Part shown: positions 46,462 to 62,399 of the stretch, piece by piece
Layout: each line of letters starts with the position of its first letter
Numbering within the stretch: position 1 is the stretch's first letter
NCBI GenBank assembly: GCA_900769475.1
Contig: CAAGGQ010000110.1
Location: forward strand, 1,173 to 65,172
From: Clostridia bacterium
GTDB taxonomy: Bacteria; Bacillota; Clostridia; Oscillospirales; CAG-272
Length of the DNA: 64,000 nucleotides
Reading direction: 5' to 3'
Made by a program: the position numbers and the translations under genes
Notes under the pieces: model-generated
Databases searched by the model: none
The model's input: only the letters and a program-made list of their open reading frames with translations
What the model was told of the DNA's origin: nothing

Positions 46462-46486
46462 TTTTCGATTTTTTTCAAGAAACCTA

Positions 46487-46515
46487 TTGACAAACGGTCA
46501 AAATTGTGATATGAT
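46487..46515 (+). promoter_or_regulatory. promoter of T-box leader 1 (TTGACA-17-TATGAT)
   Basis: TTGACA at 46487-46492 and TATGAT at 46510-46515. Confidence 0.6.
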
Positions 46516-46531
46516 AATGCCAATTTCCAAA

Positions 46532-46790
46532 GGCTATGACGAAGACGGCCGAAAAAGATCGTTTCCAGAGAACCGACGGTTGGTGCGAGTCGGTAACGGG
46601 ATTTTTCAAAGGCCCATCCCTTCCGAGCCGGAAGCCCGAAAGACTGCGAGTAGGCGCTCCCCGTGATTGCTGCGTAAATGCATAAGGATTGTTGGATCCT
46701 GAGTGACGGCGTCTGCCGTAATTTGAGTGGTACCGCGAGTGTTGATTCACCCGTCTCAAAGAAAATCTTTGAGACGGGTATTTTTATTTT
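46532..46790 (+). promoter_or_regulatory. T-box riboswitch leader 1; positional specifier AUC (Ile)
   Basis: The Stem I base has a K-turn (GGC-UAU-GA...GA-GCC), an AGAGA bulge and a GGUUGGUGCGAG distal loop. The T-box sequence AATTTGAGTGGTACCGCG is at about 46720-46737. Terminator CCCGTCTCAAAG..CTTTGAGACGGG plus a T-run is at 46749-46790. The codon at -4..-2 before the base helix is ATC (46616-46618). Confidence 0.8.
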
Positions 46791-46810
46791 CCAAGAGGAG
46801 GAAACAAACC

Positions 46811-49078
46811 ATGGCTACACTGGAAACCCAAAAACTGTTGGAGGTTGCCGGACGTATCCGCGAAATGCGCGAGATCTTTGGCTTTAGTCCCGAGGAAATG
46901 GCGCAAAAAACCGAGGTATCGGTGATCGAATATCAAGAATATGAAAAGGGACGCAAGGACTTCCCCTTTACCTTTATTCATAAATGTGCCCTGGCCTTTG
47001 GAGTGGGCATTACCGACCTCTTGGAGGGTCAGAGTGCCCGCCTGCATTCCTACACCATTACACGCAAGGGTGAAGGGCAGCAAACCGCCAAGGAGGACGG
47101 TATTGAGATCAAAAATCTGGCCCCCCTCTTCCGCAAAAAGATCGCAGAACCCTACTGGGTTCGCTATGAATTCAACGAAGAGCTGCAGAATAAGCCCATT
47201 CATCTGACCAAGCACTCGGGCCAGGAATTCGACTTTGTAATGAAAGGTCGCCTCAAGATCCAGATCGGTGACAACGTAGAATATTTGAGCGAGGGCGACA
47301 GCATCTACTACAACTCCTCCACCCCTCACGGTATGATCGCCGTGGACGGCAGCGAGTGCTTGTTCGTAGCCGTGGTCCTGCCCGGCGAAAACGAGGCCGA
47401 GGAGGTTCTGCGCGATACCATCATCTCTGCGCACTCGGGAGATAAGAAGCTGGTTTGCGCCGACTTTGTGGACACGGTGGAGGACGAGAACGGCTATCCT
47501 CTTTCCATCAACTTCAAAAACGAGGAACGCTTCAACTTTGCCTTTGACGTGGTGGATGCCTTGGCCAAGCGAGAGCCCAACAAGCTGGCCATGATCCACA
47601 TTGATCGGGAAAAGAACGAGCGCCGCTTCACCTTTAACGATATGAAGCGCCGCTCCAATCAGTGTGCCAACTACTTCAAGTCCCTGGGCATCAAGCAGGG
47701 GGATCGGGTCATGCTGGTGCTCAAGCGGCACTATCAGTTCTGGTTCGCGATCCTGGGTCTGCACAAGCTGGGTGCCATCGTCATCCCCGCCACCAACCAG
47801 CTCCAGGAGCACGACTTCGAGTACCGCTTCAATGCGGCCGACGTGAGCGCCATTCTCTGCACCGCCGACGGTGACGTGGCGCATCAGGTGGAGCTGGCCG
47901 CCGCCAAGTGCCCTTCCCTGAAAACCAAGATCCTGGTGGGCGGCGCTCGGGAGGGCTGGAAGTCCTTCGACGAGGAATTCTCCCTCTTCAGCACCCACTA
48001 CTACCGCACCGAGGATACCCCCTGCGGCAGCGATCTGATGCTCATGTTCTTTACCTCGGGCACCACGGGCTACCCCAAGATCGCCGCTCACAACTACAAA
48101 TATCCGCTGGGGCACTACGTCACCGCCAAATACTGGCATGGCGTCAGCTCGGGCGGTCTGCACTTCACCATCTCGGATACCGGCTGGGGCAAGGCTCTGT
48201 GGGGCAAGCTCTACGGCCAATGGCTCTGCGAGGGTGCGGTCTTTACCTATGACTTTGACCGCTTCGACGCCGCCGACATCCTTCCCATGTTCGCCAAATA
48301 CGGCATCACCACCTTCTGTGCTCCTCCCACCATGCTCCGCATGATGGTCAAGGAGGACATCTCCAAATACGATCTCTCCTCGGTGCGCCATATGACCACC
48401 GCGGGCGAGGCACTCAATCCCGAGGTCTACCGTCAATTTGAGGAAGCCACGGGTCTGCAAACCATGGAAGGCTTTGGACAAACCGAGCTGACCCTGACCA
48501 TTGCCAACCTGATGGGTGGCTCCCATAAGCTGGGCTCCATGGGCAAGCCGGTGCCGATCTATGACGTTGACATTGTGGATCCCGACGGCAATCCCGTGGC
48601 CGACGGTGAGGTGGGTGAGATCATTGTTCGCACCGATAAAAAGGTTCCCTGCGGACTCTTTGAGGGCTATTATCGCAATGAGGAAAAGACCCGCGAGGTA
48701 TGGCACGACGGCATGTACCACACCGGCGACACCGCATGGCGGGATGAGGACGGCTTCTATTGGTACGTGGGGCGCGTAGACGACGTGATCAAGTCCTCGG
48801 GCTACCGCATCGGTCCCTTCGAGATCGAGAGCGTGATCATGGAGCTTCCCTACGTGCTGGAATGCGGCGTTTCCGCCGCTCCCGACGAGCTCCGCGGTCA
48901 GGTGGTCAAGGCCAGCATCGTGCTCACCAAGGGTACTCAGCCCTCCGAGGAGCTGAAGAAGGAGATCCAAAACTATGTCAAGCAACACACGGCTCCCTAC
49001 AAGTATCCCCGTATCGTAGTCTTCCGGGATGAGCTGCCCAAAACCATCAGCGGAAAAATCCAACGCAACAAGCTGTAA
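46811..49078 (+). CDS. fusion protein: XRE-HTH + cupin N-terminal module / AMP-forming medium- or branched-chain acyl-CoA synthetase
   Basis: ATG at 46811 follows AGGAGG. Residues 1-~70 are an HTH_3 (FSPEEMAQKTEVSVIEYQEYEKGRKDFPFTFIHKCALAFGVGITDLLEG). Residues ~120-200 are a cupin (HSGQEFDFVMKG...GDSIYYNSSTPHGM). The ligase part has FFTSGTTGYPK, EGFGQTE, YHTGD, GRVDDVIKSSGYRIGPFEIES and SGKIQRNKL. Confidence 0.88.
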   Translation: MATLETQKLLEVAGRIREMREIFGFSPEEMAQKTEVSVIEYQEYEKGRKDFPFTFIHKCALAFGVGITDLLEGQSARLHSYTITRKGEGQQTAKEDGIEIKNLAPLFRKKIAEPYWVRYEFNEELQNKPIHLTKHSGQEFDFVMKGRLKIQIGDNVEYLSEGDSIYYNSSTPHGMIAVDGSECLFVAVVLPGENEAEEVLRDTIISAHSGDKKLVCADFVDTVEDENGYPLSINFKNEERFNFAFDVVDALAKREPNKLAMIHIDREKNERRFTFNDMKRRSNQCANYFKSLGIKQGDRVMLVLKRHYQFWFAILGLHKLGAIVIPATNQLQEHDFEYRFNAADVSAILCTADGDVAHQVELAAAKCPSLKTKILVGGAREGWKSFDEEFSLFSTHYYRTEDTPCGSDLMLMFFTSGTTGYPKIAAHNYKYPLGHYVTAKYWHGVSSGGLHFTISDTGWGKALWGKLYGQWLCEGAVFTYDFDRFDAADILPMFAKYGITTFCAPPTMLRMMVKEDISKYDLSSVRHMTTAGEALNPEVYRQFEEATGLQTMEGFGQTELTLTIANLMGGSHKLGSMGKPVPIYDVDIVDPDGNPVADGEVGEIIVRTDKKVPCGLFEGYYRNEEKTREVWHDGMYHTGDTAWRDEDGFYWYVGRVDDVIKSSGYRIGPFEIESVIMELPYVLECGVSAAPDELRGQVVKASIVLTKGTQPSEELKKEIQNYVKQHTAPYKYPRIVVFRDELPKTISGKIQRNKL

Positions 49079-49118
49079 TTTATTACAAAATAAGGAAAGA
49101 AAAAAATCAAAAATCATA

Positions 49119-49148
49119 TTGACAAATCCCTTTGTTTGTGCTATAATA
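49119..49148 (+). promoter_or_regulatory. promoter of T-box leader 2 (TTGACA-18-TATAAT)
   Basis: TTGACA at 49119-49124 and TATAAT at 49143-49148. Confidence 0.6.
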
Positions 49149-49164
49149 ACACATATTTTAAAAT

Positions 49165-49436
49165 AGCTTTGACGAAGAGTGATACGGGAGCGTGCCCTGC
49201 AGAGAGATGACGGTTGGTGCAAGCTCATCAAAAGCATTCCCCGTGTTTGTAGCTTCTGAGCTGAGAGGAAGAACGCCTATGGCAAGTAGAACCTCTCCGT
49301 GATTGCTGCGTAAAGGCATACGGATTGTACTGATCCTGAGTGGCGGCGTCCTGCCGCAATTTGAGTGGTACCGCGGGTCAACCTGAATTATCAGGCGCTC
49401 GTCTCAAAGTCACATGCTTTGGGGCGAGCGCTTTTT
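49165..49436 (+). promoter_or_regulatory. T-box riboswitch leader 2; positional specifier GUA (Val)
   Basis: K-turn base (AGC-UUU-GA...GA-GCU), AGAGAG bulge and GGUUGGUGCAAG distal loop. The specifier-loop 3' side is GUUUGUAG with GTA at 49249-49251 followed by a purine. T-box AATTTGAGTGGTACCGCG is at about 49358-49376. Terminator GCGCTCGTCTCAAAG..CTTTGGGGCGAGCGC plus TTTTTT is at 49395-49436. Confidence 0.82.
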
Positions 49437-49458
49437 TCGTCCCGGAAAAGGAGTACAT

Positions 49459-51750
49459 ATGGAACAGATCACAGGTCTTGATTACAAAATTCAAGAAATG
49501 GCGCGACGCATTCGGGAATTGCGCGACATCGAGGGCTTTACCCCCGAGGAGATGGCGCAAAAGACCAACGTTTCGGTAGCCGAATACCTGGATTGCGAAA
49601 ACGGCAGAAGCGATTTGAACTTTGCCTTTATCTACCGCTGCGCCATGGCGCTCAAGGTCAACGTGACCGATATCATCGAGGGCTACAGCCCCAAGCTCCG
49701 CTCCTACACCGTTACCCGCAGCGGCAGCGGCCAGGAGATCGCCAAGGCTCACGGAATGACCTACTACAATATGGCCTACGACTTTAAAAACCGTATTGCC
49801 GAGCCTCTGTTCGTTAAGATCGATTACAACGAGAACAGCGCCCATAAGGACATCGAGCTCACCACCCACACGGGTCAGGAGTGTGACATCGTGATCGACG
49901 GTCAGCTCATGGTGCAGATCGGCGAGCACCGGGAGGTGCTGGGTCCCGGGGACAGCATTTATTACAACAGTGAAACGCCCCACGGCATGATCGCCACGGG
50001 CGGTCGGGATTGCACCTTCTACGCCATCGTTCTCAATCCCTCGGGCGAGCCCATTGCCGAGCTCATGCCCACCCAAGCGGTTACCAACGTCAAGGCTGTG
50101 GCCAAGAAGGACGAGAAGGATCGCATCTGGCACAACTACATCGACGTGGTGGAGAGCGAGACCGGACATCCCACCTCCATCACCTTCAAGAACACCGAGC
50201 ACTTTAACTTCGCCTTTGACCTGGTGGACGCCCTGGCCGATCGGGAACCCGAAAAACTGGCCATGCTCCACATTGCCAAGGACAAGACCGAACGCCGCTT
50301 CACCTTCAAGGATATGAAGCGGGAATCCAACCGCTGTGCCAACTACTTTAAGGCCATTGGCATCAAGCGGGGAGATCGGGTCATGCTTATCCTCAAGCGG
50401 CACTACCAGTTCTGGTTCGCCATGCTGGGTCTGCACAAGCTGGGCGCCATCGCCATTCCCGCGGTCAACCAGCTTCAGGAGCACGATCTGGAATACCGCT
50501 TCCAATCCGCCGGAGTTTCGGCCATCGTTTGCACCGCCGACGATGACGTGGCGCATCAGGTGGATCTGGCGGCACGGACCTGCCCCGGTCTCACCAATAA
50601 GATCCTGGTAAACGGCACGCGGGAGGGCTGGAGATGCTTTGACGAGGAATACACCATGTACAGCACCCATTACAACCGCCCTGCGGACGCTCCCGGCGGC
50701 GAGGATCTGATGCTGATGTATTTCACCTCGGGCACCTCAGGCTATCCCAAGATCGCGGCACACAACTACAAATACGTGCTGGGCCACTTCCACACCGCCA
50801 AGTACTGGCACACCGTGGATCCCGACGGCCTGCACTTTACCATTTCGGATACCGGCTGGGCCAAGGCCATGTGGGGCAAGCTCTACGGCCAATGGCTCTG
50901 CGAGGCAGCCACCTTTGTTTACGACTTTGACCGATTTGATGCCGCCGACATCCTTCCAATGTTCGCAAAGCATCACATCACCACCTTCTGCGCACCTCCC
51001 ACCATGCTCCGCATGATGGTAAAGCAGGATATTTCCAAGTACGACCTCTCCTCGGTCCAGCACATGACCACCGCAGGCGAGGCACTGAACCCCGAGGTCT
51101 ACCGTCAATTTGAAAAGCTGACGGGTCTGCAGATCCACGAGGGCTTTGGACAAAGCGAGAGCACCATGATCATTGGTAACCTGGTGGGTGCCCCCCACAA
51201 GATTGGCTCCATGGGCAAGCCGGCTCCCACCTACGACGTTTCCCTGGTGGATGCCGACGGCAATCCCGTCAAGGCCAGCGAGGTGGGTGAGATCGTGGTC
51301 AACATCAAGAACGGGATCCCCTGCGGTCTTGCCGTTGGCTACTATGGTGACGAAGAAAAGACCGCCGAAACCTGGAAGGACGGCCTCTACCACACCGGCG
51401 ACACCGCTTGGCGTGACGAGGACGGCTACTTCTGGTACGTGGGCCGCGTAGACGACGTGATCAAGTCCTCGGGCTACCGCATCGGTCCCTTTGAGATCGA
51501 GAGCGTGATCATGGAGCTTCCTTACGTGCTGGAGTGCGGCGTTTCGGCCGTGCCCGACGAGGTAAGAGGCCAGATCGTAAAGGCCAGCATCGTGCTGGTC
51601 GATGGCACCGAGCCCTCCGAGGATCTGAAGAAGGAAATTCAAACCTACGTCAAAGAAAAGACCGCGCCCTACAAGTACCCCCGTATCGTGGTCTTCCGCG
51701 AGAGCCTTCCCAAAACGGCCAGCGGCAAGATCCAGCGGAACAAGCTGTAA
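49459..51750 (+). CDS. fusion protein: XRE-HTH + cupin N-terminal module / AMP-forming acyl-CoA synthetase (paralog of 46811..49078)
   Basis: ATG at 49459 follows AAAAGGAG. Same architecture and the same ligase motifs (YFTSGTSGYPK, EGFGQSE, YHTGD, GRVDDVIKSSGYRIGPFEIES, SGKIQRNKL). The ligase domain is clearly paralogous to the upstream gene. Confidence 0.88.
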   Translation: MEQITGLDYKIQEMARRIRELRDIEGFTPEEMAQKTNVSVAEYLDCENGRSDLNFAFIYRCAMALKVNVTDIIEGYSPKLRSYTVTRSGSGQEIAKAHGMTYYNMAYDFKNRIAEPLFVKIDYNENSAHKDIELTTHTGQECDIVIDGQLMVQIGEHREVLGPGDSIYYNSETPHGMIATGGRDCTFYAIVLNPSGEPIAELMPTQAVTNVKAVAKKDEKDRIWHNYIDVVESETGHPTSITFKNTEHFNFAFDLVDALADREPEKLAMLHIAKDKTERRFTFKDMKRESNRCANYFKAIGIKRGDRVMLILKRHYQFWFAMLGLHKLGAIAIPAVNQLQEHDLEYRFQSAGVSAIVCTADDDVAHQVDLAARTCPGLTNKILVNGTREGWRCFDEEYTMYSTHYNRPADAPGGEDLMLMYFTSGTSGYPKIAAHNYKYVLGHFHTAKYWHTVDPDGLHFTISDTGWAKAMWGKLYGQWLCEAATFVYDFDRFDAADILPMFAKHHITTFCAPPTMLRMMVKQDISKYDLSSVQHMTTAGEALNPEVYRQFEKLTGLQIHEGFGQSESTMIIGNLVGAPHKIGSMGKPAPTYDVSLVDADGNPVKASEVGEIVVNIKNGIPCGLAVGYYGDEEKTAETWKDGLYHTGDTAWRDEDGYFWYVGRVDDVIKSSGYRIGPFEIESVIMELPYVLECGVSAVPDEVRGQIVKASIVLVDGTEPSEDLKKEIQTYVKEKTAPYKYPRIVVFRESLPKTASGKIQRNKL

Positions 51751-51762
51751 AGGAGCCCGCGG

Positions 51763-52428
51763 ATGAATACAAGCAAGCGCATTACCCTTCTCTGCGGTCA
51801 CTACGGCAGCGGAAAGACCAACGTGGCGGTCAATCTCGCCCTGCGGGAACGAACCCTCTACGAAAAGGTTGCGGTGGCCGATTTGGACATCGTAAACCCC
51901 TATTTCCGTACTAAGGACAGCAGCGCGGAGTTTGAGGCGGCAGGCATTCGCCTGATCTGCTCGGACTACGCCAACACCAACGTGGACATCCCCGCTCTCC
52001 CCCCGGATCTCTACGCCATTACCGACGACAAGAGCATTCGCGTGCTCATCGACGTGGGCGGCGATGATCGGGGTGCCCTTGCCCTGGGACGTCTGGCTCC
52101 CTCCATTTTGGAGGAGGACAGCTATGAGATGCTCATGGTCATCAACGGCTACCGTCCCCTGACCCGGGACGCTGCCTCCACCCTGGAGGTATTGCAGGAG
52201 ATCGAGGCCGCCTGCGGAATCCCATTCACGGGCCTGGTCAACAACTCCAACCTGGGAAACGACACCACCGCCGATGACGTGCTCGCCTCTTTGGCCTACG
52301 CCGAGGAGGTCTCCCGCATCACGGGGCTTCCCGTGGTCATGACCGCCTTCCACGAGGATCTGCTCCCCGCGCTTGGGGATAAGGTTCCTCATCCCTTCCC
52401 TTTGGCACTGCAAAAGAAAATCATATAA
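51763..52428 (+). CDS. P-loop NTPase (MinD/ParA/CooC-like SIMIBI class), unknown role
   Basis: Deviant Walker A LLCGHYGSGKTN and Walker B-like VLIDVGGDD. RBS AAAGGAG. 12-nt gap after the ligase gene with no terminator. Confidence 0.7.
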   Translation: MNTSKRITLLCGHYGSGKTNVAVNLALRERTLYEKVAVADLDIVNPYFRTKDSSAEFEAAGIRLICSDYANTNVDIPALPPDLYAITDDKSIRVLIDVGGDDRGALALGRLAPSILEEDSYEMLMVINGYRPLTRDAASTLEVLQEIEAACGIPFTGLVNNSNLGNDTTADDVLASLAYAEEVSRITGLPVVMTAFHEDLLPALGDKVPHPFPLALQKKII

Positions 52429-52473
52429 ATCATCGATTGACCCCGGCGTCAACCGAAAAAGGAGCGATGTAAT

Positions 52474-52680
52474 ATGGCAAAATTAACCTTTAAGACCGAC
52501 AACTGCAAGGGTTGCGGCCTGTGCGTGGATGCCTGCCCGAAGAAGATCCTTCGCCTGGCCTCCAACAAGATCAACAAAAAAGGACATCATCCGGTAGAAA
52601 TGACAGATGAATCGGCTTGCATTGGCTGTGCCTTCTGCGCCACCATGTGCCCCGATTGTATTATTAAGGTAGAGAGGTGA
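52474..52680 (+). CDS. 2-oxoacid:ferredoxin oxidoreductase delta subunit (2x[4Fe-4S] ferredoxin)
   Basis: 68 aa with CKGCGLCVDACP and CIGCAFCATMCP cluster motifs. Confidence 0.9.
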   Translation: MAKLTFKTDNCKGCGLCVDACPKKILRLASNKINKKGHHPVEMTDESACIGCAFCATMCPDCIIKVER

Positions 52681-52685
52681 TCAAC

Positions 52686-53741
52686 ATGGCAGAAAAAGTA
52701 TTGATGAAGGGCAACGAGGCCATTGCCGAGGCCGCCATCCTTGCGGGATGCCGCCACTACTTTGGTTACCCCATTACCCCCCAAACCGAAATTGCCGCCT
52801 ATATGGCAAAGAAAATGCCCAAGATCGGCGGTACCTTCCTCCAGGCCGAGAGTGAGATCGCGGCCATCAACATGGTCTATGGCGTGGCCTCCACGGGTCT
52901 GCGCGTTATGACTTCCTCCTCCTCTCCCGGAATCTCCCTGAAAAGCGAAGGCCTTTCCTATCTGGCCGGTGCTGATCTGCCCTCTTTGGTTGTAAACGTA
53001 CAGCGCGGCGGCCCGGGTCTGGGCGGTATTCAGCCCAGCCAGTCCGACTACTTCCAGGCCACTCGCGCGGCAGGACACGGCGACTTCCACATGATCGTTC
53101 TGGCTCCCGCCTCGGTGCAGGAGATGGCAGAGCTGACCGTGAAGGGCTTTGAGCTGGCCGACACCTACCGCATGACCTCTATGATCCTGGCCGACGGTAC
53201 CATGGGTCAGATGATGGAGCCCGTGGAGCTGAACTTTGACGTGAAGCCCATGCCCGAAAAGCCCTGGGCCACCACCGGCACCAAGCTGGAGCGCAAGCAC
53301 AACATCGTCAACTCCCTCTCCCTGGTTCCCGAGGAGCTGGAGCAGCTCAACTTTGCCCGCTTTGAGAGATATCGTCAGATCGAAGAAAACGAGCCCATGT
53401 GGGAAGAGTACATGATGGAGGACGCCGAGATCTGCATTGCCGCCTTTGGCATTGCCTCCCGCGTTTCCAAGAACGCCATCAACGAGGCCCGCAAGCAGGG
53501 CATTAAGGTGGGCCTGATCCGTCCCATCACCCTTTGGCCCTTCCCCAAAAAGGCATTCCAAAAGGCCGCTGAGCAGGTGAAGGCATTCATCTCCGTGGAG
53601 CTTTCCATGGGTCAGATGATCGACGACGTCCGCCTGGCCAGCGAATGTAAGGTACCCGTTACTCTGTGCAACCGTGCGGGCGGTATGATTCCCTCCCCCG
53701 AGCAGGTACTGGCAGAAATTAAAAAGGTTGCAGGAAAGTGA
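52686..53741 (+). CDS. 2-oxoacid:ferredoxin oxidoreductase alpha subunit (VorB/KorA-like)
   Basis: KGNEAIAEAAILAGCRHYFGYPITPQTEI N-terminus is typical of OFOR alpha subunits. ATG at 52686 follows GAGAGGTGA. Confidence 0.88.
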   Translation: MAEKVLMKGNEAIAEAAILAGCRHYFGYPITPQTEIAAYMAKKMPKIGGTFLQAESEIAAINMVYGVASTGLRVMTSSSSPGISLKSEGLSYLAGADLPSLVVNVQRGGPGLGGIQPSQSDYFQATRAAGHGDFHMIVLAPASVQEMAELTVKGFELADTYRMTSMILADGTMGQMMEPVELNFDVKPMPEKPWATTGTKLERKHNIVNSLSLVPEELEQLNFARFERYRQIEENEPMWEEYMMEDAEICIAAFGIASRVSKNAINEARKQGIKVGLIRPITLWPFPKKAFQKAAEQVKAFISVELSMGQMIDDVRLASECKVPVTLCNRAGGMIPSPEQVLAEIKKVAGK

Positions 53742-53752
53742 GGCATGGAACC

Positions 53753-54508
53753 ATGGTAGTATTTGATAAACCCCACGCATTGGCAGATATGCCCTTGCAT
53801 TATTGCCCCGGTTGCACCCACGGCATCATCCACCGCCTGGTGGCAGAGGTCATGGACGAGCTGGGAATTGAAGGAAAGACCATTGGCATCGCCCCCGTGG
53901 GATGCTCGGTAATGGCCTACAATTATTTCAACTGTGACATGATCGAGGCGGCCCACGGACGGGCTCCCGCCATTGCCACCGGCGTAAAGCGCGCCAATCC
54001 CGAGAACATCGTGTTCACCTATCAGGGTGACGGCGACCTGGCCTCCATTGGTATGGCAGAAACGGTGCACTCCGCCGCCAGAAACGAGAACATCACCGTG
54101 ATCTTCGTAAACAATGCCATTTACGGTATGACCGGCGGTCAGATGGCTCCCACCTCCCTCCCCGGACAGATCACCCAGACCTCTCCCTACGGCCGTGACG
54201 TAAATCATTGCGGCTATCCCATCCGCGTTTGCGAAATGCTCTCTCAGCTGGAAAGCCCTCAGTACCTGGAGCGCGTGACTGTGAACAGTGTAAAGAACAT
54301 CAAGAACGCCAAGAAGGCGATCAAGAAGGCCTTCCAGAACCAGATCGACGGCAAGGGCTTCTCCCTGGTCGAGGTTCTCTCCACCTGCCCCACCAACTGG
54401 GGTATGACACCTCAGGCGGCGCTGAAGTGGATCGATGATAAGATGATCCCCTACTATCCTCTGGGCGTTTACAAGGACAAATCCGCACAACAGGAGGAAA
54501 GCAAATGA
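53753..54508 (+). CDS. 2-oxoacid:ferredoxin oxidoreductase beta subunit (TPP-binding)
   Basis: HYCPGCTHGI Cys motif and the GDGD...N TPP-binding region (YQGDGDLASIG...NNAIYGMTGGQ). A start at 53738 (GTG) is the alternative. Confidence 0.88.
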   Translation: MVVFDKPHALADMPLHYCPGCTHGIIHRLVAEVMDELGIEGKTIGIAPVGCSVMAYNYFNCDMIEAAHGRAPAIATGVKRANPENIVFTYQGDGDLASIGMAETVHSAARNENITVIFVNNAIYGMTGGQMAPTSLPGQITQTSPYGRDVNHCGYPIRVCEMLSQLESPQYLERVTVNSVKNIKNAKKAIKKAFQNQIDGKGFSLVEVLSTCPTNWGMTPQAALKWIDDKMIPYYPLGVYKDKSAQQEESK

Positions 54509-55038: not shown

Positions 55039-55276
55039 GCGGAATATTAGAAGGATGCGTTTTTGTCAGAACCTTTTTTGGAAAAAAGGTTCCGACACCT
55101 CCAAAAAACTTCCCTAACAGTTTTTATAAATCAACCGGGATGTTCCGTCTCCTTTCCACAGGTACTCCCGATAGCGGTTAGGGACCACTACCCTAACCGC
55201 TCCAAAAAGTTAGTTTCATTCAAGACGATATTTTTAGTTCGATTTTAAAGAACAAACAGAAAGAAGATTACGTAAA

Positions 55277-56338
55277 ATGGATATCAAGATCATCAAAACA
55301 ACCACTCCCAAGGAAAAGCCCGATGCCTCTACGCTGGGCTTTGGTAAGATCTTTACCGATCATATGTTCATCATGGATTATGAAGCAGGAAAGGGCTGGC
55401 ACGATGCTCGCATCGTTCCCTTTGAGAACATCTCCCTTCACCCCGCCTCCACCGTTCTGCACTACGGCTCCGAGATCTTTGAGGGTCTGAAGGCCTACCG
55501 CCGTGCCGACGGCAAGGTGCAGCTCTTCCGTCCCATGGAGAACGTTCGCCGTCTGAATTCCTCGGCCGACCGTCTCTGTCTGCCCCTGCTCCCCGAGGAT
55601 ATGGCTATGGAAGCCCTCACCGCCTTCGTGCGCACCGAAGAGGCCTGGACCCCCTCTGCTCCCGGCACCTCCCTCTATCTCCGTCCCTTCCTGTTTGGAA
55701 ATGACGAGAGCCTGGGCGTGCACACGGTGCAAAACGCCAAGTTTGTAATCATCGCCTCCCCCGTGGGAAGCTACTACAAGGAAGGCATCAACCCTGTAAA
55801 GATCATGATCGAGGACGAGGACGTGCGTGCCGTAAAGGGTGGCACCGGCTACACCAAGTGCGGCGGTAACTACGCCGCCAGCAACCGTGCCGGCGAGCGC
55901 GCCGCACAAAAGGGCTACTCTCAGGTGCTCTGGCTGGACGGTGTACACAGAAAGTACATTGAGGAAGTAGGCGCCATGAACGTCATGTTCAAGATCGCGG
56001 GCGAGATCGTGACTCCCATGCTTTCGGGCTCAATTCTTCCCGGCATTACCAGAAAATCCTGCATTGAGATCCTTCAGAAAGAGGGCTACAAGGTCAGCGA
56101 GCGCCTGCTCAGCATCGACGAGCTGGAACAGGCTATGGCTGACGGCACCCTGGAAGAAGCCTGGGGCACCGGCACCGCAGCCGTTGTTTCTCCCATTGGT
56201 GAGCTTTGCTACAAGGATCAAAAGTACACCGTTGGCGGCGGCAAGATCGGAGAGGTTACCCAGCACCTGTACGATACCCTCACCGGAATTCAGTGGGGCA
56301 AAACCGAGGACACCTTTGGTTGGACCATGCCTCTTTGA
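55277..56338 (+). CDS. ilvE: branched-chain amino acid aminotransferase
   Basis: Class IV aminotransferase with FEGLKAYR, GTGYTKCGGNYAAS and ILPGITR motifs. 353 aa. Confidence 0.93.
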   Translation: MDIKIIKTTTPKEKPDASTLGFGKIFTDHMFIMDYEAGKGWHDARIVPFENISLHPASTVLHYGSEIFEGLKAYRRADGKVQLFRPMENVRRLNSSADRLCLPLLPEDMAMEALTAFVRTEEAWTPSAPGTSLYLRPFLFGNDESLGVHTVQNAKFVIIASPVGSYYKEGINPVKIMIEDEDVRAVKGGTGYTKCGGNYAASNRAGERAAQKGYSQVLWLDGVHRKYIEEVGAMNVMFKIAGEIVTPMLSGSILPGITRKSCIEILQKEGYKVSERLLSIDELEQAMADGTLEEAWGTGTAAVVSPIGELCYKDQKYTVGGGKIGEVTQHLYDTLTGIQWGKTEDTFGWTMPL

Positions 56339-56389
56339 TCTCTTCAGCAGAACAGAACTATCAAAGTTTGATTTGAGAGGAACGCGAAA

Positions 56390-57952
56390 ATGAAAAATCT
56401 TTTTCGTATTCTGATTGCGTTTTTGGCAATCCCGATTTTGTTGGCGTCCTGTCAAGCCACTCCCAAGGAGATGGACGAGACATCCGCTATTACAACGGGG
56501 ACCACCGCAACGGAGGAAGCACCTACTGCTACAACGGGATCAACCTCAACGGAGAGCAATCCCGGTACGCCGAGTGTGGAGCCGCCCGCAGAGATACGCG
56601 TAGCAACCTTCAACGTACAATCCTCTCTTTCCACTACCGAAAAGGGCGATTTGACGGCGGCATCGCAGGTTCGTTTGGATGCTCTGATCAAGGAGATCCT
56701 TTCCTATGATTTAGACGTTATCAGCCTGCAAGAGGATGCCGAAAAAATAAATGAATTGCTTTCCGCGGAGCTGGTGTCGGCAGGCTACGCCTGTTATGCC
56801 GATCCTGTTCCGGGCTCCGGTGAGGATCAGCGTTGCGGCATCTACTACCGCGCGGAGCGCTTTGAGCTGTTGGAGTCGGGAGTGAAAGACCTTCCCCACG
56901 GAACCTTTAAGGGAACCATTGGCACCCATAAAAACCTGAATTCTTCTCACCATTTCTTTCTCCGTTACGTCATTCTTCGTGATAAGGAGACCGGCAAATC
57001 CTTTTTAAGCGCCAACACCCACCTCATTTCTCGCAACCAGAACACCCTTGGTATTTTCCAAACCGCGACCCGTATTCAGGCAAGGATCCATCAAATTGTC
57101 GGATATGAGGAGATGATTGACGCCTTGCGCGTGGGCGAGTACGTAGGCATTCCCGTTTGCGTGACCGGAGATATGAACACGGTGGCATCCGCATCCTTTG
57201 AATTTCACGATACCCTTGAAAACGCCAAGGCGTTTGGCGTTCCGGAGCTTACCGTAGGCGCAACCGGTGTTCTAAAGGTTCCTTATCACTGTTTGGATAA
57301 TGATACCAATTCCGCCGTGGAGCTTCCTTACGAGATTACCAAGGTCACAGGAACGGACGTATATTTTAAGATTCAGTCCCCCACTTACTCCCGTTTGACC
57401 GCCAACCTGAAGGATAGCTTTGTCGTTGCCAAAAAGACAAACGCCACCGATACCAATTACGGCTCGTGGAACAGCTACCTTGGCAGCAAGGCAGGAAAAA
57501 ACAAATCCACCGAGCGTTTGGACTACATTTTGACCGACAACGGTTTTACCGTGGAGGAGTATCAAATTGGTGACGGCTATGCCACCTATCTGCGAGACAA
57601 CAACGGGGTGGACGAGCTGAAGCTCTTTGAGGAGGATCTTCTTGCCGCACTTTCGGGTACTTTGACCTCTGCCAACGCAAAATTCGCCTACGACTTTGTT
57701 AAGAACGGTTCGTCTTATACCGCTACCAAGCTTCCGGATTGGTTGACCGATAACGGCGGTATTTATGCTTATTGCTACACCAATGATACCGGAGAGGTGA
57801 ATACCGTGCCGCGAACCTTCTTCAACTATCTTTCCTATTGCGCTTACTACACCCTCACGCCGGGGAAAAACGTAAAGGGAACCGCAGACCGCATTGAGGT
57901 TTGTACCTCGGATCATCTGTGCAGCATTGCCGTGCTTTCCTTTGCGGAATAA
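56390..57952 (+). CDS. secreted lipoprotein of the endonuclease/exonuclease/phosphatase (EEP) family
   Basis: MKNLFRILIAFLAIPILLASC is a signal peptide with a lipobox. A Thr-rich linker follows. RVATFNVQ and DVISLQED are EEP motifs. Confidence 0.75.
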   Translation: MKNLFRILIAFLAIPILLASCQATPKEMDETSAITTGTTATEEAPTATTGSTSTESNPGTPSVEPPAEIRVATFNVQSSLSTTEKGDLTAASQVRLDALIKEILSYDLDVISLQEDAEKINELLSAELVSAGYACYADPVPGSGEDQRCGIYYRAERFELLESGVKDLPHGTFKGTIGTHKNLNSSHHFFLRYVILRDKETGKSFLSANTHLISRNQNTLGIFQTATRIQARIHQIVGYEEMIDALRVGEYVGIPVCVTGDMNTVASASFEFHDTLENAKAFGVPELTVGATGVLKVPYHCLDNDTNSAVELPYEITKVTGTDVYFKIQSPTYSRLTANLKDSFVVAKKTNATDTNYGSWNSYLGSKAGKNKSTERLDYILTDNGFTVEEYQIGDGYATYLRDNNGVDELKLFEEDLLAALSGTLTSANAKFAYDFVKNGSSYTATKLPDWLTDNGGIYAYCYTNDTGEVNTVPRTFFNYLSYCAYYTLTPGKNVKGTADRIEVCTSDHLCSIAVLSFAE

Positions 57953-57975
57953 AATACAACAAAACAAAAGCTTGT

Positions 57976-58015
57976 GGCGTCTCAAACTCCGTTTGGTTTG
58001 AGACGCCGCGTTTTT
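57976..58015 (+). terminator. rho-independent terminator
   Basis: GGCGTCTCAAAC-tccgtttg-GTTTGAGACGCC followed by GCGTTTTT. Confidence 0.85.
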
Positions 58016-58048
58016 ATTGATAATTTTTCAAAAAAATCAAAAAACCCG

Positions 58049-58077
58049 TTGACAAACCAAAAAAATCATGTTATAAT
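58049..58077 (+). promoter_or_regulatory. promoter of T-box leader 3 (TTGACA-17-TATAAT)
   Basis: TTGACA at 58049-58054 and TATAAT at 58072-58077. Confidence 0.65.
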
Positions 58078-58097
58078 ACACCATATTTTATTTTAAA

Positions 58098-58365
58098 TGC
58101 ATTGATGGAATTATTCTCTATCCCAAGTTCACCCCAGAGAGTCGGCGGAGGGTGCGAGCCGACGTGGACCGACAGAGAAGTCTCGTTCCGGAGCAGAGTT
58201 GCCCAACCCATATGGCAGTAAGCGACTACGGCGTGCCCCGTTACCAAGGCAAAGGGCTTGTCAGAGCCCCAATGAGTTGACCGTAGTTTTACGGTAAACA
58301 GGGTGGTACCGCGAAGATTGTTCGTCCCTGAAGCTGATGTATCAGCTTCAGGGACTGTTTGTTTT
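58098..58365 (+). promoter_or_regulatory. T-box riboswitch leader 3; specifier CUC (Leu)
   Basis: K-turn base (UGC-AUU-GA...GA-GCA), AGAGAG bulge and GGAGGGUGCGAG distal loop. The specifier-loop 3' side is AGUCUCG with CTC at 58182-58184 followed by G. T-box AAACAGGGTGGTACCGCG is at about 58297-58313. Terminator GTCCCTGAAGCTGAT..ATCAGCTTCAGGGAC plus TGTTTGTTTT is at 58324-58365. Confidence 0.85.
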
Positions 58366-58416
58366 CTATACCCCCGCGCTCTGTACGCCTCGCAAACAGA
58401 AAGGAAAACGATCCAA

Positions 58417-59802
58417 ATGAAACACATTCAAATTGCAGACACCACACTTTGCAGAGAGGGCAAGGCCTTTAGCTTTAAGGAAAAGCTGGAGATTGCCCGT
58501 CAGCTGGAAAAGCTGAACGTAGATGTGATCGAGCTCCCCGAGATCCATACGCCTAAGACCGACATCCTCTTTGTGCGTACCGCCTCCTCCTTTGTAAAGC
58601 AAAGCACTCTCTCGGTCGCTGCCGGAAAGACCCCGGAAAGCATTTCCAACGCCTTGGCCGCGTTAGGCAATACCGCCAATCCTTGCGTGCGCATTGAGCT
58701 GCCCGTATCCCCCGTGGGCATGGAATACATCTGTCACAAAAAGCCGCCCAAGATGCTGGAGTGGATCACGCAGGCTGTCCACACCGCCAAGAAAGGCTGT
58801 TCCAACGTGGAATTTTGCGCCGTGGATGCCACCCGCGCCGAAAAGGACTTTTTGAAGGAGGCCCTTCTGGCCGCACAAGTGGCAGGTGCCACCTCCATTT
58901 CGATCTGCGATAGCGCCGCCGAAATGCTCCCCGACGATTTTGCCACCTTCGTGGAGGAGATCCTCTCTTGGGTGGATTTGCCCGTGGGTGTTCGTTGCTC
59001 CAACCTCAACGGCCTCTCGGTGGCCGCCTCCATTCTTTCGGTGCGTCACGGAGCCTCCTGCGTAAAGACCAACGTAGACGGTGCCGACGCTCCGCTGGAG
59101 GCCTTTTGCACCATGCTCCGCAACTGCGGCAACAGCTATGGCTTCACCTCCTCTCTGCGTTACACCGAGCTCTACCGCATTGTAAAACAGATCCTGCGCA
59201 TTACCGATGCGGCCTCCAAGAGCGACAAGATTCTTGCTGTGCAGGGCAGCGCCAACTCGGACATCCACCTGGATCGCAACGATTCCCAGGATGCAGTCAT
59301 TGCCGCCGTGGCCAAGCTGGGCTATGATCTCTCCGAGGAGGATCAAAAGAACGTGTACGAGGAATTCCTCCGCGTGGCCGAAAAGAAGAAGGTGGGCTCC
59401 AAGGAGCTGGACGCCATCATTGCCACCGCCGCCCTCCAAGTCCCCTCCACCTATCGCTTGGAGAACTATGTGATCAACACAGGCAGTGTTCTCAGCGCCA
59501 GCGCCCAGATCATAATGACCCGCGGCGAGGAGACCGTGCAGGGTATTTGCGTAGGAGACGGCCCCATTGACGCCGCCTTCCGCGCCATGGAGCAGATCCT
59601 GGGCCGCCATTACGAGTTGGATGATTTTCAAATCCAGGCTGTGACCGAGGGTAAGGAAGCCATGGGCTCGGCAGTGGTCAAGCTTCGTCGGGACGGCAAG
59701 CTCTACTCGGGCAACGGTCTTTCCACCGACATCATCGGTGCCAGCATCCGCGCCTATCTCAACGCCGTGAACAAAATCATCTATGAGGAGGAACAGGCAT
59801 GA
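58417..59802 (+). CDS. 2-isopropylmalate-synthase-like protein with degenerate catalytic motifs and an intact C-terminal LeuA regulatory/dimerisation domain
   Basis: The HMGL-like barrel is recognisable (IQIADTTL..KEKLEIARQLEKLNVDVIE). However, DTTLRDGEQ is replaced by DTTLCREGK and HxHND by RCSNLN, and GIGERAGN is missing. The C-terminal YELDDFQIQAVTEGKEAMGSAVVKLRRDGKLYSGNGLSTDIIGASIRAYLNAVNK is a well-conserved LeuA_dimer domain. Confidence 0.75.
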   Translation: MKHIQIADTTLCREGKAFSFKEKLEIARQLEKLNVDVIELPEIHTPKTDILFVRTASSFVKQSTLSVAAGKTPESISNALAALGNTANPCVRIELPVSPVGMEYICHKKPPKMLEWITQAVHTAKKGCSNVEFCAVDATRAEKDFLKEALLAAQVAGATSISICDSAAEMLPDDFATFVEEILSWVDLPVGVRCSNLNGLSVAASILSVRHGASCVKTNVDGADAPLEAFCTMLRNCGNSYGFTSSLRYTELYRIVKQILRITDAASKSDKILAVQGSANSDIHLDRNDSQDAVIAAVAKLGYDLSEEDQKNVYEEFLRVAEKKKVGSKELDAIIATAALQVPSTYRLENYVINTGSVLSASAQIIMTRGEETVQGICVGDGPIDAAFRAMEQILGRHYELDDFQIQAVTEGKEAMGSAVVKLRRDGKLYSGNGLSTDIIGASIRAYLNAVNKIIYEEEQA

Positions 59803-62324
59803 AGCTTTCCTTTTCTACCAAGGGCTGGCATCACAGCTCCTTTGACGAATTTTGCGAGATTGCCAATGACCTCCACTTTGAGGGTATTGAGCTTCACAAT
59901 ATCTATAATCCTATTTTTACCGACAAGGACGGTGCCTTTCACAACTACACCGCTGCGGTGACCCGCCGTCACCTCTTTGAAAAACACTTGCAGATCCCCT
60001 GCATCGATACCGTTGGTGACATTGCCGAGGCCGAAACCGAGGATCTGACGGTGAAGGAGCTGGAGCGTTGCTTTGAGATCGCCTCCAATCTTCACATTCC
60101 CCACATCCGCCTGCGCGCCAACGCTCGCGAGAACGCCGAGGAAGGCGTGGAGCAGGTGGCCTCCCTCATTGGCAAGATCCTGCCCCTGGCCGAGGAGAAG
60201 AACATCACCCTTCTGATCGAAACCTCGGGGCTCTTTAGCAATACCGCTACTCTGCGGGATCTGCTGGTACGCTTTGCCTGCGATCATCTGGGTGCCCTTT
60301 GGAATCTCTCCGCCGCCTACTTTGAGTGTGGGGAGGATGCCGAAACCGTGATCAAGAACCTGGGGGCTTACGTCCGTCACGTGCATTTTCATGATGCCAA
60401 GAAAACGTTCGACGGCGTAGAATACTGCCTGGCCGGCGAGGGCGAGATGCCCGTAAAAGATATGATGCTGGCGCTACGTTCGGTGAACTACGACGGCTAT
60501 ATCTCCCTGGTTTGGGATCCCTCCTGGTGCGAGGAGCTGGACGACATGGAGATCATCTTCTCCCAGTTTGTGGGCTACATGAAGCAATTCAGTAACCCCT
60601 CCCGCAACGAAGCTACCCTGTACAGCAACAAGACCCACACGGGCAAGTTCGTATGGAAAAAGGACCTTCTCATCGACCACACCTTCTCTCAGGTGCTGGA
60701 TCGTATGGTCGCCGAATTCCCCGACCAGTACGCCTTCAAATACACCACCCTGGACTACACCCGCACCTACAGCCAATTCCGGGATGACGTGGACGAATTC
60801 GCTCGCGTGCTCATTGACCTGGGAGTCAAGGCCGGCACTCACGTGGCGGTCTGGGCCTCCAACGTGCCCCAATGGTACATTGCCTTTTGGGCCACCGTAA
60901 AGCTGGGCGCGGTGCTGGTGACCGTAAACACCTCCTACAAGATCCACGAAGCCGAATACCTCTTTAAGCAATCGGATACCCACACCATCATTATGACCGA
61001 GGGCTCCAAGGATTGCAGCTACGGCGAGATCGTTGCCGAGCTCTGCCCCGAGCTGGCCACCACCAAGCCCGGAAAGCCTCTCCATGCCAAGCGTCTGCCC
61101 TTCTTGCGCAACGTCATCACCGTTGGCTTCCGTCAAAAGGGATGTCTGGAATGGAACGATGCCCTGGAGCGCGCCTCCAATGTCCCCGTAGAAGAGGTTT
61201 ATCGCATGGCTGCCGCCGTGAACAAGGACGACGTTTGCAACATGCAGTACACCTCAGGCACCACCGGCTTCCCCAAGGGCGTTATGCTCACCCACTACAA
61301 CATCGTCAACAACGGCAAGTGCATTGGCGACCGCATGGATCTTTCCACCGCCGACCGCATGATGATCCAGGTTCCCATGTTCCATTGCTTTGGCATGGTA
61401 CTGGCCATGACCGCCGCCATGACCCACGGAGGAACCCTGCTTCCCCTGCCCTATTTCTCTCCCAAGCCGGCCCTGGCCTGCATCCACAACGAGCACATCA
61501 CCGCCTTCCACGGCGTGCCCACCATGTTCATTGCCCTTTTGGAGCATCCTGACTTTGAAAAGACCGATTTCTCCTACATGCGTACCGGTATTATGGCGGG
61601 AAGCCCCTGCCCCATCTCGGCCATGCGCCAGGTGGTGGAGAAAATGAACATGCGGGAAATCACCATTGTGTACGGCCAGACCGAAGCCTCTCCCGGATGC
61701 ACCATGAGCTCCACCGACGATCCCATTGAGGTTCGCGTGGGCACCGTTGGTAGACCTCTGCCCGAGATCGAGTGCAAGATCGTTAATCCCGAAACCGGAG
61801 AAGAATGCCCCGATGAGGTGACGGGCGAATTCGTGGCCCGTGGCTACAACCTGATGAAGGGCTACTACAAGATGCCCAAAGCCACCGCCGCCGCCATTGA
61901 CGCCGAGGGCTGGCTCCACACGGGCGACCTTGCCTGCCGCACTCCCGAAGGAAACTTCCGTATTACGGGACGCCTCAAGGATATGATCATCCGCGGCGGC
62001 GAGAACATCTATCCCAAGGAAATCGAAGAATTCATCTACACCCATCCTAAGGTGAGCGACGTACAGGTCATCGGCGTGCCCGACGAGCAGTACGGCGAAG
62101 AGATCATGGCCTGCATCATCCTCAAAGAGGGCGAAACCATGACCGCTGACGAAATGAAGGCCTATATCGGTGCCAATATGGCCCGCCATAAAGTCCCCCG
62201 CTATATCGACTTTGTGGACGCCTTCCCCATGAACGCCGCCGGTAAGATCCTCAAGTATAAAATGCGCGAGGACGCCGTGGAAAAACTCGGCCTGCACAAA
62301 GCCAACAATATTGTAACTGCGTAA
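59799..62324 (+). CDS. fusion protein: xylose-isomerase-like TIM barrel (AP_endonuc_2 type) / AMP-dependent acyl-CoA ligase (FadD-like)
   Basis: ATGA overlap with the LeuA-like gene. The N-terminal ~265 aa (FEGIELHN..., LLIETSG, VRHVHFHDAK, DGYISLVWDP) is a sugar-phosphate isomerase/epimerase-type barrel. The C-terminal ~560 aa has MQYTSGTTGFPKGVMLTH, YGQTEASPG, LHTGDL, GRLKDMIIRGGENIYPKEIE and AAGKILKYKMR. Confidence 0.85.
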   Translation: MKLSFSTKGWHHSSFDEFCEIANDLHFEGIELHNIYNPIFTDKDGAFHNYTAAVTRRHLFEKHLQIPCIDTVGDIAEAETEDLTVKELERCFEIASNLHIPHIRLRANARENAEEGVEQVASLIGKILPLAEEKNITLLIETSGLFSNTATLRDLLVRFACDHLGALWNLSAAYFECGEDAETVIKNLGAYVRHVHFHDAKKTFDGVEYCLAGEGEMPVKDMMLALRSVNYDGYISLVWDPSWCEELDDMEIIFSQFVGYMKQFSNPSRNEATLYSNKTHTGKFVWKKDLLIDHTFSQVLDRMVAEFPDQYAFKYTTLDYTRTYSQFRDDVDEFARVLIDLGVKAGTHVAVWASNVPQWYIAFWATVKLGAVLVTVNTSYKIHEAEYLFKQSDTHTIIMTEGSKDCSYGEIVAELCPELATTKPGKPLHAKRLPFLRNVITVGFRQKGCLEWNDALERASNVPVEEVYRMAAAVNKDDVCNMQYTSGTTGFPKGVMLTHYNIVNNGKCIGDRMDLSTADRMMIQVPMFHCFGMVLAMTAAMTHGGTLLPLPYFSPKPALACIHNEHITAFHGVPTMFIALLEHPDFEKTDFSYMRTGIMAGSPCPISAMRQVVEKMNMREITIVYGQTEASPGCTMSSTDDPIEVRVGTVGRPLPEIECKIVNPETGEECPDEVTGEFVARGYNLMKGYYKMPKATAAAIDAEGWLHTGDLACRTPEGNFRITGRLKDMIIRGGENIYPKEIEEFIYTHPKVSDVQVIGVPDEQYGEEIMACIILKEGETMTADEMKAYIGANMARHKVPRYIDFVDAFPMNAAGKILKYKMREDAVEKLGLHKANNIVTA

Positions 62325-62333
62325 TTAAGACCT

Positions 62334-62399
62334 CGGGGGAAGGAGAACACTTCTTTCAAGAAGTGTTCTCCTTCCCCCGAACCCCTACCCTCTTTCCGG
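62334..62399 (+). repeat. repeat family D copy 2 (GGGGGAAGG hairpin + ACCCCTACCCT tail)
   Basis: CGGGGGAAGGAGAACACTTC-tttcaa-GAAGTGTTCTCCTTCCCCCGAACCCCTACCCTCTTTCCGG. It shows the same pattern as the minus strand of 19650-19703. Confidence 0.6.

Follow-up and report, generated by a model that had tools for sequence, protein, structure and literature searches.

T-box leaders of the Ile, Val and Leu classes precede three acyl-CoA ligase genes in a Clostridia bacterium: a candidate regulon for amino acid synthesis from branched-chain acids

Organization of the locus

The window examined here was a 64,000-nucleotide (nt) stretch of contig CAAGGQ010000110.1 (assembly GCA_900769475.1, positions 1,173 to 65,172 of the forward strand) from a Clostridia bacterium of the order Oscillospirales. 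Towards its 3' end it contained three T-box leaders, each upstream of a gene for an AMP-forming acyl-CoA ligase, together with genes for a four-subunit 2-oxoacid:ferredoxin oxidoreductase (VOR), the branched-chain amino acid (BCAA) aminotransferase IlvE and a LeuA-like protein. The features of this cluster, numbered from the first base of the window, were as follows (aa, amino acids; HTH, helix-turn-helix).

46487-46515, + strand: promoter 1; TTGACA, 17-nt spacer, TATGAT and extended -10 TG (consensus scan)
46527-46761, + strand: T-box leader 1, Ile class (RF00230); specifier AUC at 46616-46618
46749-46790, + strand: intrinsic terminator of leader 1; 14-bp stem and U tract, 5' arm overlapping the 3' arm of the antiterminator
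46811-49078, + strand: ligase 1, 755 aa; HTH_3, Cupin_2 and Macs/MbcS-type AMP-forming acyl-CoA synthetase (Pfam)
49119-49147, + strand: promoter 2; 12/12 consensus, extended -10
49160-49409, + strand: T-box leader 2, Val class (RF00230); specifier GUA at 49249-49251
49393-49443, + strand: intrinsic terminator of leader 2; 18-bp stem and U tract
49459-51750, + strand: ligase 2, 763 aa; HTH, cupin and Macs-type ligase, architecture as in ligase 1
51763-52428, + strand: P-loop NTPase of predicted SIMIBI class, 221 aa (AlphaFold2 (AF2) model and its structural neighbours, synteny)
52474-52680, + strand: VOR delta; Fer4 (Pfam)
52677-53741, + strand: VOR alpha; POR_N and PFOR_II (Pfam), VorB (NCBIfam)
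53738-54508, + strand: VOR beta; TPP_enzyme_C (Pfam)
54505-55038, + strand: VOR gamma; POR (Pfam)
55277-56338, + strand: IlvE, class IV branched-chain amino acid aminotransferase (NF009897)
56390-57952, + strand: Exo_endo_phos lipoprotein gene, 520 aa; lipoprotein-type signal peptide
57973-58010, + strand: terminator of the lipoprotein gene (terminator scan)
58049-58077, + strand: promoter 3; 12/12 consensus, extended -10
58093-58332, + strand: T-box leader 3, Leu class (RF00230); specifier CUC at 58182-58184
58324-58365, + strand: intrinsic terminator of leader 3 (terminator scan)
58417-59802, + strand: putative LeuA-derived pseudoenzyme, 461 aa; degenerate HMGL-like barrel and LeuA_dimer domain (Pfam)
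59799-62324, + strand: ligase 3, 841 aa; xylose-isomerase-like TIM barrel and FadD/PRK12583-class AMP-forming acyl-CoA ligase
62333-62380, called on the - strand by the scan: terminator closing the Leu operon; 20-bp hairpin just past the ligase 3 stop

T-box leaders and specifier codons

The T-box model RF00230 was scanned over the window at its gathering score of 93 and then, permissively, over 46300-49500, and all three leaders matched over the full span of model positions 1-219. Leader 3 (114.5 bits, E 1.4e-24) was the sole leader above the gathering score; leader 1 (84 bits, E 4.9e-18) and leader 2 (71.8 bits, E 7e-15), both from the permissive scan, fell under it, so that routine annotation would miss both. 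A consensus scan placed the three best promoters of the region, of the sigma-70 type with 11-12 of 12 consensus positions and an extended -10 TG, exactly upstream of the three leaders, and a terminator scan revealed a strong hairpin followed by a U tract at the 3' end of every leader, called at 46749-46779, 49393-49433 and 58324-58355, respectively. These results bear out the initial annotation of the locus, which had described three complete T-box leaders with promoter and terminator and had proposed an RF00230 search as a check.

The sequence GUGGUACCGCG (UGGU) was common to all three leaders, and in each the UGGU pairs with the A73 discriminator. The 3' arm of the antiterminator is overlapped by the terminator, and the two structures compete. 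The Rfam alignments contained the K-turn, specifier loop, AG bulge and distal loop of Stem I, with the codon 1 nt before the base helix. Minimum free energy folding of Stem I alone gave z-scores of about 0 and a canonical fold only for leader 3; this folding being uninformative, Stem I structure was judged from the covariance model and from comparative data.

In leader 3, the Rfam alignment read the 3' side of the specifier loop as GAAG-U-CUC-G followed by the base helix UUCC, and the same positional rule gave AUC in leader 1 and GUA in leader 2. The register was tested comparatively, because the Rfam alignment of leader 2 was poor over Stem I and because leader 1 was without the AGUA/GAA S-turn. 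To this end, GTDB species genomes were searched with ligase 1, which gave 80 loci; the relatives number at least 594, with identities of 69-83%, and all were from gut or rumen metagenome-assembled genomes labelled Acutalibacteraceae, Oscillospiraceae, Christensenellaceae or Eubacteriales. The loci were scanned for the T-box core, a K-turn and a complementary base helix were required for Stem I to be parsed, leaders failing the parse were read by eye, and an nhmmer pass was added.

Upstream of ligase 1 orthologs, ATC was found in 61/61 parsed leaders, followed by A in 30, C in 27, G in 4 and U in 0. Leaders upstream of ligase 2 orthologs had GTA (41) or GTC (4, plus 3 read by eye), and those upstream of the LeuA-like gene mostly had CTC, with CTG in 4 species. 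Specifier substitutions across the loci were synonymous only, so the Ile, Val and Leu codons AUC, GUA and CUC of the initial annotation were invariant or changed only synonymously over about 80 species. The base helix showed compensatory variants (GAAG/CTTC, GAGG/CCTC, GGAG/CTCC, GATA/TATC, GTGG/CCAC), and free covariation was seen in the helix immediately above the loop of leader 1 (GGTC/GACC, GGTT/AACC, GGCT/AGCC, GAAC/GTTC). The internal loop of the Ile-class leader is minimal, with 5' AC and 3' Y-AUC-N and no S-turn, which may be the reason for its low RF00230 score.

A proline codon (CCC/CCU) was also considered as the leader 1 specifier, as ccc or cct precedes AUC in 55/61 leaders. This reading was rejected: two of its bases pair with a conserved GG in the covarying helix, which explains the conserved CC-pyrimidine before AUC, 6 leaders have non-Pro triplets at this place, and AUC never varies and keeps the canonical spacing to the base helix.

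The leaders share their attenuation anatomy and specifier codons with the class-I BCAA T-boxes of Firmicutes (Bacillus subtilis ilv-leu, with CUC, and ileS, valS and leuS). They differ from these in the loop of the Ile-class leader and in the two scores under the Rfam threshold. The known elements govern aminoacyl-tRNA synthetases, ilv/leu genes and transporters, whereas the leaders described here precede acyl-CoA ligases and a ferredoxin oxidoreductase.

From Stem II onward, leader 2 was nearly identical to leader 1 in alignment. This suggests that a unit of T-box and ligase was duplicated in tandem, and that Stem I would then have been re-specified from Ile to Val. T-boxes are known to evolve by duplication with altered specificity (cited in PMC3766115).

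Conservation of the cluster in related genomes

The gene order first annotated at this locus proved to be conserved, in that T-box-ligase 1, T-box-ligase 2-P-loop-vorDABG-ilvE and T-box-pseudoLeuA-ligase 3 recurred among the 80 loci (pseudoLeuA being the LeuA-like gene), with three T-boxes in most species. One T-box per ligase is the commonest state and is probably a derived one. The Leu pair lay upstream of ligase 1 in some loci; ligase 2 directly followed ligase 1 in L016; and pseudoLeuA, ligase 3, ligase 1 and ligase 2 were contiguous in L020, L024 and L054, with no leaders between such adjoining ligases. In L040, L051, L060, L065, L070 and L071, the P-loop and VOR genes were preceded by one ligase only, which was of the Gly type and stood behind an Ile T-box.

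Ligase domains of ligases 1 and 2

Ligases 1 and 2 were 69% identical to each other and contained AMP-binding and AMP-binding_C domains (Pfam). Their ligase domain matched PDB 3ETC, the MacsMa enzyme of Methanosarcina acetivorans, with 627 bits and about 58% identity; MacsMa prefers 2-methylbutyrate and has Gly in place of the pocket Trp of acetyl-CoA synthetase (Acs) (PMC10455477). The best NCBIfam model was that of Staphylococcus aureus MbcS (430 and 427 bits, below the equivalog cut-off of 850), an enzyme which activates 2-methylbutyrate and isobutyrate and for which isovalerate is a poor substrate (PMC10026030). As had been pointed out in the initial annotation, both ligases carry the GFGQTE/GFGQSE motif (EGFGQTE or EGFGQSE), with Gly standing where Acs has its pocket Trp; the alternative Trp (AKYW) was kept. 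Sequence comparison thus supported placing ligases 1 and 2 in the Macs/MbcS class of short branched-chain acyl-CoA synthetases, which they resemble in overall identity, in the pocket Gly, in the AKYW Trp and, for ligase 1, in a GWGK motif. They depart from MacsMa and MbcS in an N-terminal extension of about 230 aa, in the score of 430 against the MbcS cut-off of 850, and in the GWAK of ligase 2.

GWGK in ligase 1, as in MacsMa, and GWAK in ligase 2 were invariant in 79/79 and 50/50 orthologs, respectively, the variable position being Gly460 in ligase 1 and Ala468 in ligase 2. Through the shared D-x-G-W anchor, this position aligned with Val310 of Salmonella enterica Acs, whose numbering was confirmed and which was reportedly described as a residue of the acetate pocket (Gulick 2003; Ingram-Smith 2006). 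Among the 79 + 50 orthologs, only 2 positions of the ligase domain separated the paralogs, 1 of them invariant in both groups. The smaller predicted pocket of the Val-gated ligase 2 fits isobutyrate, compared with 2-methylbutyrate for ligase 1, and these two acids are the putative substrates of the respective enzymes.

Alternatively, ligases 1 and 2 might both take 2-methylbutyrate and isobutyrate, the duplicate T-box being a regulatory redundancy by which a shortage of either amino acid raises a common activity. MacsMa and MbcS have each been reported to act on more than one branched acid, the ligase domains are 72% identical between the two orthogroups compared with 76-78% within them, species with a single ligase use the Ile T-box, and in L010 one T-box serves three ligases. 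Set against this are the Gly/Ala difference in the pocket, which is invariant within each group and tracks the specifier, and the retention of both paralogs side by side in most species. On balance we consider such redundancy possible but not the likelier case, and the assignment of 2-methylbutyrate to ligase 1 and isobutyrate to ligase 2 is preferred.

The Leu operon

The LeuA-like protein matched PF00682 (96.9 bits) and PF08502 (104.7 bits), but stayed under every NCBIfam LeuA cut-off, the best score being 274 against 532. It shares with LeuA the HMGL-like barrel and the LeuA_dimer domain, including the loops G-x-G-P-x-D-A and G-N-G-x-S-T-D-I, but is about 460 aa long instead of about 510 aa. 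Alignment to solved LeuA structures revealed that RDGEQ was lost by a 4-residue deletion and that HxH was changed to R-C-S. The same loss was found in 26/26 full-length orthologs of the related loci and, in a search of 1.84 billion proteins, in 108/110 full-length proteins among the best 150 representatives; motif-bearing LeuA proteins appeared in that search only at about 200 bits. The family comprises at least 108 clusters at 50% identity, with members of about 455-480 aa (proteins P0361-P0484). By far the best-conserved part of the protein was the regulatory domain, including GDGPIDAAF and GNG-x-STDI. Judged by these motifs, the protein cannot be classed as an isopropylmalate synthase, and its family is a putative and so far unrecognised pseudoenzyme clade. 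Its naming as LeuA-like stood for the barrel and the dimer domain, and not for the catalytic motifs RDGEQ and HxH, which are gone.

There is a 4-nt overlap between the stop of the LeuA-like gene and the start of ligase 3, the two genes being translationally coupled, and in the related loci ligase 3 was always paired with the pseudo-LeuA gene. The closest PDB matches of ligase 3 were generic FadD, feruloyl and malonyl ligases, and PRK12583 was below its cut-off. Its TIM barrel gave weak sequence matches in the PDB and was poorly conserved, with one expected metal Glu variable. From its context, ligase 3 is proposed to act on isovalerate. The claim of the initial annotation that each ligase takes one specific branched acid accordingly fared unevenly: ligases 1 and 2 fell into the Macs/MbcS class and showed the Gly/Ala pocket split, while the isovalerate of ligase 3 is a matter of context.

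It is also conceivable that the Leu operon acts on another leucine-related acid, or that it is mainly a leucine-responsive regulatory device and not concerned with isovalerate activation. Such a role would suit a ligase without a characterised close relative, and the two extra barrel domains would be superfluous in a simple route from isovalerate through isovaleryl-CoA to 2-oxoisocaproate. However, the pseudo-LeuA/ligase 3 pair was always in or beside the VOR/IlvE cluster, the Leu specifier was conserved, and both extra barrels look catalytically degenerate. Moreover, because Macs/MbcS enzymes are poor on isovalerate, a separate ligase family is to be expected for Leu. We regard a role other than isovalerate activation as unlikely, and activation of isovalerate by ligase 3 is retained as the preferred reading.

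The HTH-cupin module of ligases 1 and 2

The N-terminal module of about 230 aa in ligases 1 and 2 contained HTH_3 (25.9 and 24.3 bits, cut-off 23) and Cupin_2 (40.4 and 44.8 bits, cut-off 27.2) domains according to Pfam, the two domains of PuuR-like XRE-cupin transcription regulators. The initial annotation had treated all three enzymes as plain ligases, overlooking these domains as well as the TIM barrel of ligase 3. The HTH-cupin part contained 18/20 of the positions that cleanly separate the paralogs (79 + 50 orthologs), and was 59-72% conserved within orthogroups and 43-52% between them. By this measure, the HTH-cupin module is where the paralogs appear to have diverged in function. The cupin residues His135, Glu139 and His173 were invariant. 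An AF2 model of the module (pLDDT 76) had as its top Foldseek matches HppE and the HTH_3 regulator 1Y9Q, with TM-scores of only 0.3-0.4, so that the likeness to both is architectural and does not tell an enzyme from a regulator. With HppE the module shares an HTH-like alpha domain joined to a cupin with an invariant His-x3-Glu ... His.

Ligases 1 and 2 could be trigger enzymes, in which the XRE-type HTH binds DNA with the acyl-adenylate or the acid as co-effector, as in BirA, where an HTH is likewise joined to an adenylating enzyme, although the proteins have no sequence relationship. The HTH_3 and Cupin_2 scores at or near the Pfam cut-offs, the architecture shared with 1Y9Q, and the conservation of the module within each orthogroup together with its share of the discriminating positions would accord with this. 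In about 120 promoter regions upstream of the leaders, aligned on the K-turn, the -35 (TTGACAA), the extended -10 (TGnTAnAAT) and an A-rich upstream tract were conserved, but no conserved palindrome or operator was detected. HTH-like and cupin domains also occur together in HppE, HEPD and MPnS, which do not bind DNA. The module was always fused to a ligase, and no close stand-alone homologs were seen, the matches being fragments of fusion proteins. A role of ligases 1 and 2 as trigger enzymes is improbable in our view.

A second sensing layer built from recycled domains is put forward only tentatively. Here the pseudo-LeuA protein would be a leucine sensor that switches the isovalerate ligase off, and the HTH-cupin modules would be allosteric or DNA-binding sensors of Ile and Val, or of the acids. 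If this is true, two controls would bear on the entry step of each acid, one on the RNA through tRNA charging and the other on the enzyme through the free amino acid, and the LeuA-like family would represent a new class of amino-acid-sensing pseudoenzyme.

Oxidoreductase, aminotransferase and intervening genes

The four subunits of the oxidoreductase are encoded in the order delta-alpha-beta-gamma, and the starts and stops of these genes overlap. The alpha subunit passed the VorB subfamily model NF005507 (541.9 bits, cut-off 399), and the beta, gamma and delta subunits matched only generic 2-oxoacid:ferredoxin oxidoreductase models, under their cut-offs. IlvE scored 477.7 bits with NF009897 (cut-off 307) and 395 bits with TIGR01123 (cut-off 250). 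The initial annotation had seen no terminators between ligase 2, the P-loop gene and the VOR genes, in agreement with the terminator scan, which gave none that was convincing on the + strand in 49433-57973. Most relatives have about 18-50 nt between vorG and ilvE, compared with 239 nt in the spacer at this locus (55039-55276). Two perfect hairpins occur in this spacer, GAACCTTTTTTGGAAAAAAGGTTC near 55070 and CGGTTAGGG...CCCTAACCG near 55175, and it possibly represents a small repeat element or a site of processing.

The P-loop protein had no Pfam or NCBIfam match at threshold, and is named in the sources as hypothetical or as a weak CbiA match. Its AF2 model (pLDDT 86) was nearest to the NG domains of signal recognition particle GTPases and to ATPase-type HypB, at TM-scores of 0.5-0.6, and on this model the protein is clearly a SIMIBI-class NTPase. 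In the related loci its gene was always directly upstream of vorD, and more than 8000 relatives exist in the databases. A putative role as VOR maturation factor is plausible. The name 'EcfA2' that JGI gives to some copies is apparently a mis-annotation.

Between ilvE and leader 3 lies the Exo_endo_phos lipoprotein gene, which is unrelated to the rest of the cluster, has its own terminator and had been left out of the initial map. It was absent from all 80 related loci and so looks like a lineage-specific insertion.

Proposed salvage regulon

The locus is probably a salvage regulon in which Ile, Val and Leu are made from exogenous 2-methylbutyrate, isobutyrate and isovalerate, with three class-I T-box leaders exerting control by transcription attenuation. 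T-boxes turn expression on in response to uncharged tRNA; here, uncharged tRNA-Ile, tRNA-Val or tRNA-Leu would stabilise the cognate antiterminator and turn the matching ligase on. The ligase would convert the branched acid to its acyl-CoA, VOR would form the 2-oxo acid from acyl-CoA and reduced ferredoxin by reductive carboxylation, and IlvE would transaminate the 2-oxo acid to the amino acid. The HTH-cupin modules and the pseudo-LeuA protein would probably add a second, post-transcriptional layer of control.

VOR reactions are reversible. The biosynthetic direction is proposed because of the T-box logic, because AMP-forming ligases run towards acyl-CoA, and because the neighbours of the cluster are themselves biosynthetic (the his operon, argJ, argD, metA and a pyridoxal phosphate-dependent Cys/Met enzyme). 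That the acyl-CoAs mainly prime branched-chain membrane fatty acids, as the precedent of the MbcS family in S. aureus would allow, or that the cluster is catabolic and turns BCAAs into acids, as the reversibility of VOR would permit, is very improbable, since control by tRNA-Ile, -Val and -Leu T-boxes fits amino acid supply and neither lipid primers nor catabolism, acid production that yields ATP does not employ AMP-forming ligases, and IlvE is co-transcribed in a biosynthetic neighbourhood.

Several observations weigh against the proposed regulon. The VOR and IlvE genes lie behind the Val T-box only, so that in cells short of only Ile or only Leu a ligase would be induced but its downstream enzymes would not, unless basal read-through, concurrent starvation or another copy of VOR and IlvE made up for the mismatch. 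Of the previous claim that VOR and IlvE are shared by the three branches, their presence and their families were confirmed, but the Val T-box alone gates them. The name VorB is a subfamily call at the level of annotation and not a test of specificity. As MacsMa and MbcS each take several branched acids and only 2 positions of the ligase domain discriminate between the two orthogroups, the specificity of ligases 1 and 2 may be partial, and no characterised close homolog of ligase 3 was found among its PDB matches. Finally, the same genes are run from one or two T-boxes in some species, and in L010 one Ile T-box serves them all. The wiring of one T-box per ligase put forward in the initial annotation is thus the commonest layout but not a universal one, exceptions being L010, L020, L024, L054 and the species with a single ligase.

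Flanking genes

Upstream of the cluster, the his operon extends over 33909-42590 (+) and includes a HisZ-like gene, hisD, hisC, hisB, hisF and others, with a gene for a major facilitator superfamily transporter (about 37883-39214) embedded between hisC and hisB. Two long antisense open reading frames (ORFs), at 44107-46365 (-; 752 aa) and 46784-49237 (-; 817 aa), face real genes on the other strand and gave no family match; both are shadow ORFs of a moderately GC-rich genome and not genes. A tRNA gene at 5273-5345 (-; 66.7 bits), with the anticodon loop CU-UUU-AA, is probably tRNA-Lys(UUU). No Pfam match at E 1e-3 was obtained for the flanking ORFs at 62467-63738 (-; 423 aa) and 42760-44050 (candidates of 183, 200 and 258 aa).

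Relation to known pathways and significance

Branched acids are reductively carboxylated to BCAAs in rumen and gut anaerobes, as Allison, Bryant and Robinson reportedly found. To our knowledge, neither particular ligase genes nor a mechanism of regulation have ever been assigned to this physiology. The predicted route at this locus, from acid through acyl-CoA and 2-oxo acid to amino acid, with an oxidoreductase of four subunits followed by IlvE, resembles both that physiology and the archaeal 2-ketoisovalerate:ferredoxin oxidoreductase (VOR), but here the genes, their order and a predicted tRNA-dependent control are explicit. Compared with lipid priming by MbcS, the role proposed for the ligases is in amino acid synthesis under T-box control.

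The initial annotation had been aware of no such wiring, and a full-text literature search found no prior description of it, nor anything joining a T-box with an acyl-CoA ligase, VOR or reductive carboxylation. Such genes are also unmentioned in the main text of two open surveys of T-box regulons. T-box attenuation, re-specification, Macs/MbcS ligases, VOR and reductive carboxylation are each known singly; their combination appears to be undescribed.

Many fibre-degrading Clostridia of the rumen and gut need isobutyrate, 2-methylbutyrate or isovalerate, which is why dairy cattle are fed branched-chain volatile fatty acids. As far as we know, the genes for uptake, activation and control of branched acids are largely unassigned. 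The cluster provides gene candidates for this old nutritional observation, namely three ligases, VOR, IlvE and an accessory NTPase, and the RNA specifier that labels each ligase gives computational substrate assignment an unusually direct starting point. It also offers what looks like a clear example of a T-box that was duplicated and re-specified from Ile to Val, the altered RNA specificity going together with a single substitution in the enzyme pocket, and the alternative wirings of related species form a natural series for T-box gain and re-specification. Two uncharacterised families come to light, one of ligases fused to HTH-cupin modules and the other a large clade of LeuA pseudoenzymes. 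T-box regulons would also reach salvage chemistry that standard annotation misses, two of the three leaders being under the Rfam threshold.

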